A stretch of 64,000 nt of DNA from an uncultured Desulfobacterales bacterium. Its GTDB lineage: Bacteria > Desulfobacterota > DSM-4660 > Desulfatiglandales > HGW-15. The first letter of the stretch is position 1, and each line of letters begins with the position of its first letter. Positions 45,101 to 46,375 of this stretch are shown here, piece by piece. The position numbers and the translations under genes are program-made. Under the pieces are notes generated by a model that made no database searches, was not told where the DNA came from, and saw only the letters and a list, made by a program, of their open reading frames with translations. Location of the stretch: contig CAYVDE010000002.1 of the NCBI GenBank assembly GCA_964450535.1, positions 17,862 through 81,861 of the forward strand. The letters run 5' to 3'.

Positions 45101-46375
45101 ACCAAAAACTATCTCTACGATTCACTCATGCGGGTGAAGCGGATCACCTCAACAACAGATCCGGGTCAGAACGTGATTGTGGATTACCAATACGACTATG
45201 ACCGCATGGACAATATCACCACCAGGGCCACGGAGCATGGGGAATACGCATACGGCTACGATGACCTCTACCGGTTGATCAACGCGGACAATCCCGTGCT
45301 TAGCGACGAGTCTTTTACCTACGACCTGGTGGGGAACAGGCTTACGTCCGCAAATGCCACTGAATGGACCTACAACCCCAATAACGAGCTTCAGGGTTAC
45401 AACGGTGTCTCCTTTAAGTATGACGCAAACGGCAACACCATCAAAAAGACAGAAGGAGAGGAGAGCACCCATTACATCTACAACGAGGAAGACCGGCTCG
45501 TAAGGGTGGAGGATGGAACCGGCAACGTCATAGCCGAATACTATTACGATCCGTTCGGCAGAAGATTGTGGAAAGAAGTTGACGGGAAAAAGACCTGCTT
45601 CCTATACTCTGATGAAGGACTTGTTGCGGAAATGGATGAAACCGGCAACATCACAAAGTCCTACGGCTGGCAGCCCGGCTCCACTTGGACGACCGATCCG
45701 CTCTTCATGAAGCAGGGTGGCCGATACTACTTCTACCACAACGACCACCTCGGAACCCCGCAGAAGGTTACGTCTGAAAGCGGGGAGGTGGTCTGGTCGG
45801 CCAAGTACGAATCCTTCGGCAGGGCGGAAGTTGAGGTTGAGACGGTTGTCAATAATTTGAGGTTTCCGGGCCAGTATTATGGAGAGAAGATCGGACTACA
45901 CTATAATTGGCACAGATACTATGATCCAAACATAGGTAGGTGTCTTCGCACTGACCCGATTGGTCTCGCCGGAGGATTCAATCTGTTCTTGTATACTGAA
46001 AACAATCCGGTCAATTTAGTTGATCCCAAAGGTCTACAATGTGGGCCAGGTCCAATTGGCGATTGGTATGTACCGGATTTTATTTTTGGTGAATGTTGTG
46101 CAAGCCATGACCGATGTTATGAAGGCAATCCCCCTTATAGTTGTCAAACACCGAAGTCAACTTGCGACCAAGACGCTTGTGAGTGCTTCAAAAGGAAATG
46201 TATAGATCAAAATAGTAAATCAGAACAGAAATGGCCTGGGCCTGGCTTACCTCCAGATATTGAATTTGATGCTTGCCTTGCAAGTGCGGCTGCTTTTTGT
46301 AAGGCTGTATCTGCTTCTGTAAAATCAAAAGAACAATTCAATAAAGCCAGAAAAGCTAATGGATGTTGCCCTTAA
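42116..46375 (+). CDS. Rhs/YD-repeat protein with Sec signal peptide and C-terminal phospholipase A2-like toxin domain
   Basis: Signal peptide MKRSCLLIASVFVVFLASHLPA. Dozens of YD repeats (YxYDxxGNL-type). Rhs core end ...RFPGQYYGEKIGLHYNWHRYYDPNIGRCLRTDPIGLAGG...NPVNLVDPKGL. A 112-aa tail with CCASHDRCY follows. Confidence 0.9.
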   Translation: MKRSCLLIASVFVVFLASHLPARTIHLGTIKVPTYKVTGITPQFTEDGSLMLTAQVNMPVTPPLRIIWRFKGDDRGYAFLSDEGESVLLSIGEQEAGVIVEACLAEGERSGGCRSITLTAALLDQVQDEAAWKDLLVPDFTEPDFICQVMEDDRYQFIFYEVASRVHTVTGEYLREKEDLAVKVPGGMLSIKRQYRSGTWTWDHERHDLTLKRGPEGNIDSIIKGATQYRAVPDDEGVFTDGIYHIHKTDEGFLWESRHGQWKRYNLEGRLTAYGDRNGVTGRILFQKGRPFCISDRNNQGVLWFEYDDSGLLRTAYDQNNRGVTYRYRQGCLSAVTDVLGNETRFSYDEKGRLAEVIEPEGARTRITYDQLGRVVSIQKQGREAEPESAAGHTFTWAYDRDLSLYYVGIDDPSGKLTEIWSNKEGQARRVDINGRTVHKTVEKDNTLEVTDSRGLTTRKTFDDRRNLLEVIHPDGSRIKREYEPRFNRKTKEINENNVITLFSYDDKGNLVQKTEASGTSDERKTQYTYDPDGNLLSIRQPGNQHTREAVTRYAYDAFGNRIKETDPEGNTTEYMHNALGKVITRTDARGKRWNYAYDRAGRLETTTDPLGFVTKYFYDAAGNKVREVDPNGRVQLFAYDWEGNLIRVTDAAGKETLFEYNADNRLVRQIDPEGRSIRYEYDTEGRLIKTIDGSGNEIVTAYEETTIPGCPSCSGGSDAQPSHIIYPTFEKAFTYDLRGRKIIEKDVLSETEEYETLFNYDDLGNLIAKTDKEGRTTTHKYDSLNRVTRVVDPLNQETQYYYDNRNNLIRLTDAKGQATQFEYDLNNRLIKEIRPMGQETSYSYDGEGNLIEKLDAKGQKTEYGYDDAGRLAGIRYYNTTEQSTPVKTVTFAYDEAGNLISYNDGSTSGSYTYDAAYRKTSETVDYGSFSKSISYTYHGNGLKKTYTDPEGVTYAYVYNANNQLAEVRIPGQGSITHTSYNWTRPEAITLPGGSTKNYLYDSLMRVKRITSTTDPGQNVIVDYQYDYDRMDNITTRATEHGEYAYGYDDLYRLINADNPVLSDESFTYDLVGNRLTSANATEWTYNPNNELQGYNGVSFKYDANGNTIKKTEGEESTHYIYNEEDRLVRVEDGTGNVIAEYYYDPFGRRLWKEVDGKKTCFLYSDEGLVAEMDETGNITKSYGWQPGSTWTTDPLFMKQGGRYYFYHNDHLGTPQKVTSESGEVVWSAKYESFGRAEVEVETVVNNLRFPGQYYGEKIGLHYNWHRYYDPNIGRCLRTDPIGLAGGFNLFLYTENNPVNLVDPKGLQCGPGPIGDWYVPDFIFGECCASHDRCYEGNPPYSCQTPKSTCDQDACECFKRKCIDQNSKSEQKWPGPGLPPDIEFDACLASAAAFCKAVSASVKSKEQFNKARKANGCCP

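Follow-up and report, generated by a model that had tools for sequence, protein, structure and literature searches.

A phospholipase A2-superfamily domain predicted at the C-terminus of a bacterial Rhs protein, with a small membrane protein as candidate immunity partner

The Rhs protein and its C-terminal tip

The 64-kb window analysed here (a whole stretch of 64,000 nucleotides from an uncultured Desulfobacterales bacterium, contig CAYVDE010000002.1) carries at 42104-46375 the gene for an Rhs/YD-repeat polymorphic toxin, whose last 112 residues form a cysteine-rich toxin tip (46037-46372, stop codon at 46373-46375; genes and motifs given below are on the forward strand unless stated otherwise). 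Judging by a family profile, hhalign comparisons and an AlphaFold2 (AF2) model, this tip is very likely a domain of the phospholipase A2 (PLA2) superfamily with an intact active site. The wider scenario, which we consider probable, is that of a Sec-exported Rhs protein releasing a Ca2+-dependent PLA2 toxin, from which the producer would be protected by the small membrane protein encoded just downstream. A sequence-only reading of the same DNA had proposed a secretory PLA2 (sPLA2)-type tip, and this proposal gained support only once a family of homologues had been built around it.

The product of 42104-46375 has 1423 residues when read from the GTG at 42104 and 1419 from an alternative ATG at 42116. 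Pfam finds 23 RHS_repeat matches in it (E=9.5e-98) and PF03527, and NCBIfam adds the YD repeat TIGR01643 and the Rhs-associated core domain (TIGR03696, Rhs_assc_core). The latter covers residues 1235-1311 (45806-46036) with 82.6 bits against a cutoff of 32.5, and its last residue is the L of the autoproteolysis motif DPKGL (46022-46036), readable directly in the sequence within NPVNLVDPKGL. A repeat shell followed by a core that ends in PxxxxDPxGL makes this protein a bona fide Rhs/YD toxin. Translation of 45980-46450 runs through ...NPVNLVDPKGL into QCGPGPIGDWYVPDFIFGECCASHDRCYEGNPPYSCQTPKSTCDQDACECFKRKC...NGCCP and a stop, which is identical to the tip sequence quoted in the sequence-only reading. 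The Rhs context and the cleavage motif ahead of the tip had been recognised there, and the numbering 1308-1419 from the ATG was right, corresponding to 1312-1423 from the GTG; the 12 cysteines counted in the tip are, on recount, 13. At the other end, a Sec-type signal peptide is predicted (MIIPMKRSCLLIASVFVVFLASHLPAR..., 42104-42184, boundaries approximate), with a basic n-region and then a hydrophobic stretch at residues 6-26 in a Kyte-Doolittle scan. On the reverse strand, an open reading frame (ORF) of 303 residues (43544-44455) lies entirely within the Rhs repeat region and is most likely a by-product of repeat composition rather than a gene.

Homology of the tip to phospholipases A2

A word-indexed search of 5.8 billion proteins with the single tip returned no homologue. 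An exhaustive HMMER (phmmer) search of 1.84 billion cluster representatives gave 13 matches, among them 12 true relatives, most of which begin directly after the DPxGL motif of an Rhs protein; the remaining one, P0002 (E=1.6e-8), was discarded as an artefact of tandem repeats, its match being confined to a low-complexity stretch at residues 57-90. Later searches added the close relatives P0015 (74% identity) and P0017 (66%), the tips of two metagenomic Rhs loci (L007 and L008, about 70-72% identical to the window's tip) and a related Rhs protein in a metagenome-assembled genome of Aromatoleum sp. (L005). The fringe of the family consists of small standalone proteins, several of them already labelled PF09056. 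The clade is rare, with about a dozen 50%-identity clusters among the 1.84 billion representatives, and a genome scan with the close subclade found one locus, L005, among 185,579 species-representative genomes, a set that does not include the window's own genome.

The assignment is carried by two links, which are independent of each other and strong. The first joins the window's subclade (profile A5) to the remaining family (profile A6, which holds no sequence of the window's clade): the hhalign alignment of the two has 92 columns, reaches from residue 1 to residue 112 and scores a probability of 99.7% with E=5.5e-27. The second joins the remaining family to PLA2s of known structure, since the A6 profile matched in the PDB the group XIII PLA2 of Tuber borchii (4aup, E=8.2e-11), that of Streptomyces violaceoruber (1faz/1kp4, E=1.1e-9), 7ygk (E=1e-7) and 8k1w (E=1.8e-7), in alignments that extend from the His-Asp (HD) helix to the C-terminal A..Y..AV..G helix. 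Some single members also pass curated models, namely P0009 with 43.5 bits on PF06951, and P0016 (35.6 bits) and P0013 (35.0 bits) on PF09056, whose cutoff is 29.4 bits. Among 13 members scanned with Pfam, PLA2G12 was matched in 10 and Phospholip_A2_3 in six, P0009 being the only one above the PF06951 cutoff. Thus, the comparison with PLA2 profiles that the sequence-only reading had suggested came out in two parts: through its family profile the tip appears significantly homologous to PLA2s, and as a single sequence it lies below every curated cutoff.

Two standalone distant relatives, P0012 (L004, 332-625) and P0026 (L009/L010, 6001-6444), have a GCGPG...VPD...HD..Y framework and are found on phage-like contigs, one beside genes for DNA polymerase A and a DUF3987 primase, the other beside Phage-tail_3 and NlpC/P60 tail genes. 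Such phage-borne sPLA2-like proteins may form a related, largely unexplored group.

Catalytic residues and cysteine pairs

The motif CCASHDRCY, of the CCxxHDxCY type, was correctly placed at 46094-46120 by the sequence-only reading. It lies on the putative catalytic helix with His25, Asp26 and Tyr29, and in alignments it falls on the HD motif of 4aup, of 1faz and of the human group XIIA enzyme (GXIIA). The string C..HD.C occurs a single time in all six frames of the window, and the expected number of chance occurrences of CC..HD.CY is 3.5e-5 per window when the window's own six-frame residue frequencies are used. In an alignment of 33 family sequences six positions are invariant (C3, G4, C22, H25, D26 and Y29), and two more, G6 and D45, are both kept in 32; the conservation of the catalytic residues spans members down to about 30% identity. 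C3, G4 and G6 belong to a putative Ca2+-binding loop, C-G-P-G (46040-46051), and D45 is the distal Asp of the C44-D45 pair (46163-46168), whose counterpart in the alignments with PLA2 structures and GXIIA is the Asp of "rID" or "CD".

In bovine numbering, we take C3-G4-x-G6 of the tip to be C29-G30-x-G32 of canonical sPLA2s. In the same way His25, Asp26, Tyr29 and Asp45 would presumably correspond to His48, Asp49, Tyr52 and Asp99. The local spacing, CC-x2-HD-x-CY and CD-x5-C, is that of sPLA2s. On these alignments the tip holds catalytic elements of the sPLA2 superfamily, namely the His-Asp pair within CCxxHDxCY, the bracing Tyr and the distal Asp in a C-D context.

The cysteines of the family are gained and lost in pairs. 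Among the 33 sequences, C21 and C51 occur together in 15 and are jointly missing from 18, with no exceptions; C56 and C81 are both present in 19 and both absent from 14; for C49 and C89 the numbers are 12 and 21. These are the three strongest Cys-Cys associations and they do not overlap. The counts for C28/C44 are 22-0-4-7, in the scheme in which C21/C51 reads 15-0-0-18. The same behaviour is seen at short distance: in the tips of L007 and L008 (72% identical to the window's) C21 and C51 were lost together, replaced by V and R respectively, and the window, P0015 and P0017 tips retain both. We assume that C3-C22, C21-C51 and C28-C44 are the canonical disulfides 29-45, 44-105 and 51-98, the spacing of the last two being an exact match, and the joint gain and loss of pairs would then be just what the disulfide map of canonical sPLA2s predicts. 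The microbial enzymes have a Cys pair that lines up with C56-C81.

Predicted structures

The AF2 model of the tip, built from a 17-sequence alignment, has a pLDDT of 81.7 and a pTM of 0.75, with helices at residues 7-12, 19-30 (holding H25, D26 and Y29), 41-66 (C44 and D45), 74-94 and 96-109. As a positive control we modelled P0016, a family member above the Pfam cutoff (pLDDT 84.1). The top four Foldseek matches of this control were microbial sPLA2s, namely chains A and B of 4aup, 7ygk and 8k1w, with probabilities of 0.99-1.00, TM-scores of 0.58-0.63 and root mean square deviations (RMSD) of 3.1-3.8 Å; the fifth match had a probability of 0.08. The models thus indicate that the family around the tip has a PLA2 fold. 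In the two models the helices come in the same order, and compared with the control the window's tip has a second helix that is longer and an insertion specific to its subclade.

Downstream membrane protein and the tip cassette

The candidate immunity gene (46437-46739) starts 61 nt downstream of the tip and encodes 100 residues with three hydrophobic segments in a transmembrane (TM) scan. Its ATG start is backed by the alignment of homologues and by a gene call of exactly the same 100-residue product in an independent assembly. Neither Pfam nor NCBIfam has a family that matches this protein. By the positive-inside rule its topology is predicted to be N-out, C-in, so that a conserved acidic loop, I-E-x-G-Y-x-E-M, would face the periplasm. 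Homologues with 44-51% identity follow the tip after 50-64 nt in L001, L002, L007 and L008, so that the membrane ORF is present in all five close loci when the window is included, and D50, H54, E60, E65 and an SISFP motif are invariant among them. In divergent members the tip is followed by an unrelated small multi-TM ORF, of 130 residues in L003 and 118 in L005, and the candidates of the window and L003 show no similarity to each other. Given its synteny with the tip, the product of 46437-46739 probably protects the producer.

Between the window and L007 the identity is 55% for the Rhs cores, about 70-72% for the tips and about 45% for the membrane ORFs. The tip and the membrane ORF together form an AT-rich segment in the composition profile (45950-46800, not assigned to a strand), whose GC content (tip 0.42, immunity region 0.32) is far below that of the Rhs core (0.54) and of the whole window (0.57). 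L007 shows the same drop, from 0.53 in the Rhs core to 0.40 in the tip and 0.33 in the membrane ORF. The distal edge of the cassette is marked by a relic of the N-terminus of a Y1 (IS200/RayT-like) transposase at 46849-47049, 66 residues long and with a decayed HUH motif (NHARFLL), which matches in BLASTP (E=1e-5) a Y1_Tnp gene flanking the orphan PLA2 cassette of L003. In that locus intact Y1_Tnp genes (4887-5855 and 7173-8153) bracket an orphan PLA2-type tip and a membrane ORF (6001-7034). The core of the L003 Rhs protein (gene at 169-4197; 5230 residues) closely resembles that of the window, but its Cys-rich tip (ITEPKMMDGKLWNCEE...) is a different one without a family assignment, the PLA2-type tip being present only as the downstream orphan. 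Y1 transposases may therefore move or mark tip cassettes, and the tip with its downstream candidate immunity gene appears to be exchangeable as a unit. These cassette features are standard behaviour of polymorphic toxins.

Two of these loci have further features of their own. The N-terminal part of the L003 Rhs protein has NosD/beta-helix, fn3 and Big_7 domains, and its tip is followed by a 180-residue MORN-like ORF. L005 (2600-3407, JAAFGU010000077.1) is a betaproteobacterial Rhs with a Cys-containing linker of about 45 residues between DPQGL and the tip; this tip is very similar to group XII enzymes (HDRCYDTCGASKASCD), and the 118-residue ORF after it has four TM segments.

Proposed mechanism

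We propose that the Rhs protein would be exported via Sec, with the YD-repeat shell enclosing the tip until aspartyl autoproteolysis at DPKGL frees it. The tip would fold oxidatively in the periplasm or outside the cell, forming five or six disulfides. Since the fold would be held by that many disulfides, maturation should be restricted to an oxidising compartment. The CGPG loop and Asp26 would bind Ca2+. With Asp45 to polarise it and Tyr29 to brace it, His25 would activate a water molecule for cleavage of the sn-2 ester of phospholipids. A neighbouring Gram-negative cell would suffer membrane damage from the released fatty acids and lysophospholipids. The producer would be shielded by the three-TM inner-membrane protein, which would probably block the enzyme at the periplasmic face. 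The tip and the immunity gene would have been gained horizontally as an AT-rich cassette. What the sequences show of this account is the Rhs architecture, the homology to PLA2s, the conserved catalytic positions, the paired occurrence of cysteines and the synteny with the membrane ORF; lipolysis, Ca2+ dependence, a bacterial target, immunity and the route of export are predictions.

Weight of the evidence and alternative explanations

Several results speak against this account. Taken singly, the tip reached E=0.21 (11.9 bits) with Pfam PLA2G12, and within the full-length protein E=0.012 (16.0 bits), against a cutoff of 34, the match on the tip being limited to the HD stretch (model positions 99-135 of 184). 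The Pfam scan of the tip gave no PF09056, PF00068 or PF05826 match, NCBIfam gave no match, and a phmmer search of PDB sequences returned PLA2 chains only at noise level (E=3-8). Even P0015, the nearest relative, has no Pfam match. The three-sequence A5 profile alone reached no PLA2 in the PDB, and the assignment of the window's tip is therefore transitive. The structural comparison that the sequence-only reading had proposed also gave no significant match for the window's own model: no PLA2 was present among the 48 PDB matches listed by Foldseek (best E=2.9), and in BFVD the only one was a "Phospholipase A2 domain protein" of a Vibrio phage (A0A2I7R0J7) at E=4.7, which had the best TM-score of that listing (0.49, with an RMSD of 3.5 Å over 91 columns and a probability of 0.41). 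Looked at as a single sequence, the tip would have been refuted by the test set in the sequence-only reading, namely no significant profile or structure match to a PLA2 fold. The P0016 control itself had Foldseek E-values of only 0.09-0.3. Since a member that passes Pfam reaches only E~0.1, Foldseek appears barely sensitive to this small all-helical fold, and we take its miss of the window's model as weak negative evidence rather than as a refutation.

The failure of the single tip in the Pfam, PDB-sequence and Foldseek tests is what would be expected if CCxxHDxCY were a chance resemblance in an unrelated Cys-rich domain, metal-binding or knottin-like, and Cys-rich sequences are indeed prone to spurious low-complexity matches, as P0002 illustrates. 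However, far less than one such motif is expected by chance in the window, and two independent links hold, one between subclade and family (E=5.5e-27) and one between the family without the subclade and PLA2 structures (E=8e-11). Moreover, the alignments reach beyond the motif, from the HD helix to the C-terminal helix, and the Foldseek control recovers PLA2 structures. We consider this explanation effectively refuted.

Other results also weigh against the account. The CGPG loop is conserved, yet it lies outside all significant profile alignments to PLA2s and is modelled with a pLDDT below 50 (residues 6-12 of the Ca-loop region). The tip is mildly acidic (pI 5.8), and many membrane-active sPLA2s are cationic. 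The three perfect Cys pairs have Fisher p values of about 1e-9 each, uncorrected for phylogeny, and it is by co-occurrence that 10 of the 13 cysteines of the window's tip would be placed in pairs, with C37, C111 and C112 left over. In addition, immunity proteins that span the membrane several times typically accompany pore-forming toxins, not lipases. A PLA2 scaffold that acts without catalysis, by perturbing membranes or binding a receptor in the manner of the Lys49 PLA2 homologues of snake venoms, would agree with the polytopic membrane ORF found after every family member examined, as with pore-forming toxins, with the poor scores of the tip against catalytic PLA2 profiles and with the subclade-specific insertion at about residues 60-80. 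However, His25, Asp26 and Tyr29 are invariant in the 33 sequences and Asp45 is kept in 32 of them, in members as distant as about 30% identity; the equivalent of Asp49 is Asp and not Lys, and the loop residues C3 and G4 are invariant, with G6 in 32 of 33. Such conservation is expected only under selection for catalysis, and we regard a non-catalytic tip as quite improbable.

No delivery machinery was recognised among the genes of the window. Pfam found no PAAR or VgrG domain in the Rhs protein, and no type VI secretion system (T6SS) family was present among about 40 ORFs scanned across the window; delivery by a T6SS was rejected on the lack of any PAAR, VgrG or other T6SS marker in the protein or the window. 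It could be argued that the tip is a true PLA2-fold enzyme that does not degrade phospholipids of other bacteria but acts on eukaryotic or other membranes, or on other acyl esters such as those of lipoproteins or lipid A, and that the downstream membrane protein gives self-protection during export or has an unrelated role. The Sec signal together with the lack of T6SS, PAAR or VgrG, which leaves no contact-dependent route into bacteria evident, would agree with this, as would the distant standalone relatives, which are phage-borne or simply secreted, and the three unrelated membrane-protein families found as neighbours of the tip. Zhang et al. 2012 (PMC3482391) also note that the related domain Tox-PLA2 has close homologues among the secreted proteins of fungi and oomycetes and in the venoms of animals. 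However, a small ORF linked to the tip in all five close loci and in two distant ones is a hallmark of toxin-immunity pairs, the orphan cassette of tip and ORF in L003 fits kin-conflict systems, and the whole catalytic network for phospholipid hydrolysis is retained. We therefore consider a different target unlikely. This explanation and that of a non-catalytic scaffold stay alive because the immunity candidates are membrane-embedded and the tip is mildly acidic; our preferred account remains that of a catalytic, antibacterial PLA2 tip with a membrane immunity protein.

Relation to known phospholipases and lipase toxins

The sequence-only reading had called the tip group XII-like, which holds as a resemblance and not as a family assignment. 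The human GXIIA (PLA2G12A) sequence used for comparison was validated on PF06951 as a genuine group XII sequence, with a score of 281.9 bits over the whole model. With hhalign the full family matched it at a probability of 96.6% and E=5.8e-10 over 72 columns (tip 17-109 against GXIIA 102-178), and A6, without the window's clade, at E=1.7e-10. For the five-member window subclade alone the match covers only the two catalytic helices, with a probability of 78% and E=1.8e-5. In these alignments C21, C22, C28, C37, C44, C51, C56 and C81 of the tip fall on GXIIA cysteines. The group XII enzymes (PLA2G12A/B, PF06951) and the tip share the pattern CC-x2-HD-x-CY...C...CD-x5-C-x4-C...C with identical spacing around HD and CD, a similar number of residues between CG loop and CC pair (18 in the tip, 19 in GXIIA) and the lack of a beta-wing between the two catalytic helices. 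The parallel drawn earlier through K-x-x-CD-x-x-x-x-C thus pointed to a real likeness, but its spacing was miswritten, the actual one being CD-x3-C-x-C-x4-C. Unlike group XII, the tip has a five-residue insert after CYEG and the insert of its subclade at about residues 60-80, its loop reads CGPG rather than GCGSP, it begins two residues before CGPG and so lacks the N-terminal region of about 85 residues, and it is bacterial and fused to an Rhs protein. By sequence, then, the Cys framework of group XII, CC-x2-HD-x-CY-x2-C-x6-CD-x5-C-x4-C, is present apart from the insert after CYEG, but the tip stays below the PF06951 gathering threshold and lacks the long N-terminal region (model positions 1 to about 95). 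When the GXII-like members were used as a search profile, the matches were prokaryotic proteins of the PF09056 type with no animal GXII among them, although the word index may limit this search.

The family is about equally close to the prokaryotic and fungal PLA2s of PF09056. In the work of Nevalainen and colleagues PF09056 and PF06951 were reportedly grouped together, and PF06951 is said to occur in bacteria. The fairest description of the tip on present alignments would be a Cys-enriched bacterial branch between PF09056 and PF06951.

An Rhs-delivered PLA2 had been put forward as an unusual payload, and the novelty of this was overstated. A domain named Tox-PLA2, with the fold of 1kp4, was already described on RHS-repeat polymorphic toxins, with the motifs DxC[ST], CxxHxxxYxN and C (Zhang et al. 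2012, PMC3482391). In that work Tox-PLA2 is listed under "T2SS", which there denotes a Sec signal, no immunity family is given, and the supplement holds no Tox-PLA2 alignment. The tip agrees with Tox-PLA2 and PF09056 (1kp4/1faz) in its position at the C-terminus of an RHS-repeat protein with a predicted Sec-type route, in C-x-x-H-D...Y and in the C-terminal A..Y..AV..G helix, and its fold would be the all-alpha PLA2 fold. It differs in having LQCG, with no Asp at -2 and a Gly after the Cys, so that DxC[ST] is replaced by x-x-C-G-P-G, and in having the Asn at +3 (CYEGN, Y-x-x-N) and not at the published +2 (Y-x-N). Its clade adds C21-C51 and C28-C44, which are absent from 1faz and 4aup (HDFGY, rID), and often C49-C89, and it has a conserved three-TM partner where Zhang et al. 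list no immunity protein. The window's tip thus matches neither the full published Tox-PLA2 motifs, although C22xxH25xxxY29 is present, nor PF09056.

With the conventional sPLA2s of groups I, II, V and X (PF00068, bovine 1bp2) the tip shares C-G-x-G, CCxxHDxCY and C-D-x5-C, at residues 29-32, 44-52 and 98-105 in bovine numbering, and we take its co-varying Cys pairs to reproduce disulfides 29-45, 44-105 and 51-98. It differs in lacking the N-terminal helix, the beta-wing and disulfides 11-77, 27-123 and 61-91, and sequence matches to conventional sPLA2s were non-significant (E=0.15-8).

The closest functional parallel among lipase toxins would be the Tle1-5/Tli pairs, since the tip is likewise a proposed antibacterial degrader of envelope phospholipids with an adjacent cognate immunity gene. 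Tle proteins are alpha/beta-hydrolases (GxSxG) or phospholipase D enzymes (HxKxxxxD) delivered by the T6SS, and Tli immunity proteins are periplasmic or lipoproteins. In contrast, the tip is of the His-Asp sPLA2 type, there are no T6SS genes in the window and the immunity candidates are polytopic membrane proteins.

Novelty and significance

The tip is an unusual variant of the known Tox-PLA2 class and not a new kind of weapon; the locus extends that class and does not overturn current understanding. In our literature search the term Tox-PLA2 was found only in Zhang et al. 2012 (PMC3482391), and the searchable literature gave no experimental study of a PLA2 polymorphic-toxin tip and no immunity protein assigned to one. 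What is new here is a rare clade whose member in the window escapes both Pfam PLA2 models, the presence of a putative animal-type Ca loop and three predicted core disulfides alongside the microbial disulfide, and the association of the clade with small polytopic membrane proteins. As current Pfam models miss the clade, annotation pipelines would label the tip as hypothetical. The locus offers a compact, testable pair, a 112-residue toxin and a 100-residue membrane immunity candidate. If their roles are as proposed, the mechanism, in which an integral membrane protein neutralises a lipase toxin, would depart from the periplasmic immunity of the Tli type.

The Cys framework of the clade bridges microbial (groups XIII and XIV), group XII and conventional sPLA2s and bears on the origin of the animal secreted PLA2s. 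Since the clade combines the three predicted core disulfides and the CGxG loop of animal sPLA2s, the group XII Cys framework and the microbial C-terminal helices and disulfide, it could be a surviving bacterial intermediate on the way from microbial and fungal PLA2s to animal GXII, and perhaps to conventional sPLA2s, with membrane partners that neutralise an interfacial lipase within the membrane in a manner not described before. This is a speculative idea that we consider unlikely. If it were true, animal sPLA2s would descend from bacterial conflict toxins.

Genomic surroundings

Directly upstream of the Rhs gene lie three co-directional genes with tight or overlapping junctions (34927-42077), identified from the ORF list and family scans. 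They encode a 1407-residue protein with no family match, a 601-residue protein with a FlgD-type Ig domain and the C-terminus ...EMKF, and a 372-residue TPR protein. Family scans assigned none of the three to a secretion system; they may form an operon with the Rhs gene or serve as export accessories for a Sec-dependent Rhs protein.

The window is otherwise an ordinary chromosome of Gram-negative, anaerobe type, with genes for SMC, FtsY, TrpA/TrpD, ImuB/DnaE2, LpxR and ferredoxin or molybdopterin enzymes. The homologue of the lipid A 3'-O-deacylase LpxR (7184-8368, E=1e-104) shows that the host has a Gram-negative outer membrane. Taken with the genes at 47368-55995, which are of ferredoxin, molybdopterin, radical-SAM and HpaB-like types, it suggests an anaerobic, proteobacterium-like host. 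A cassette for SOS mutagenesis occupies 9963-15237. Its two polymerases are a Y-family enzyme similar to ImuB (10709-11887, with IMS domains) and an error-prone enzyme similar to DnaE2 (12139-15237, DNA_pol3_alpha). Just upstream of these polymerase genes, two ORFs without family match overlap on opposite strands (9963-10715, reverse, and 10107-10712, forward), one of which may be imuA-like.

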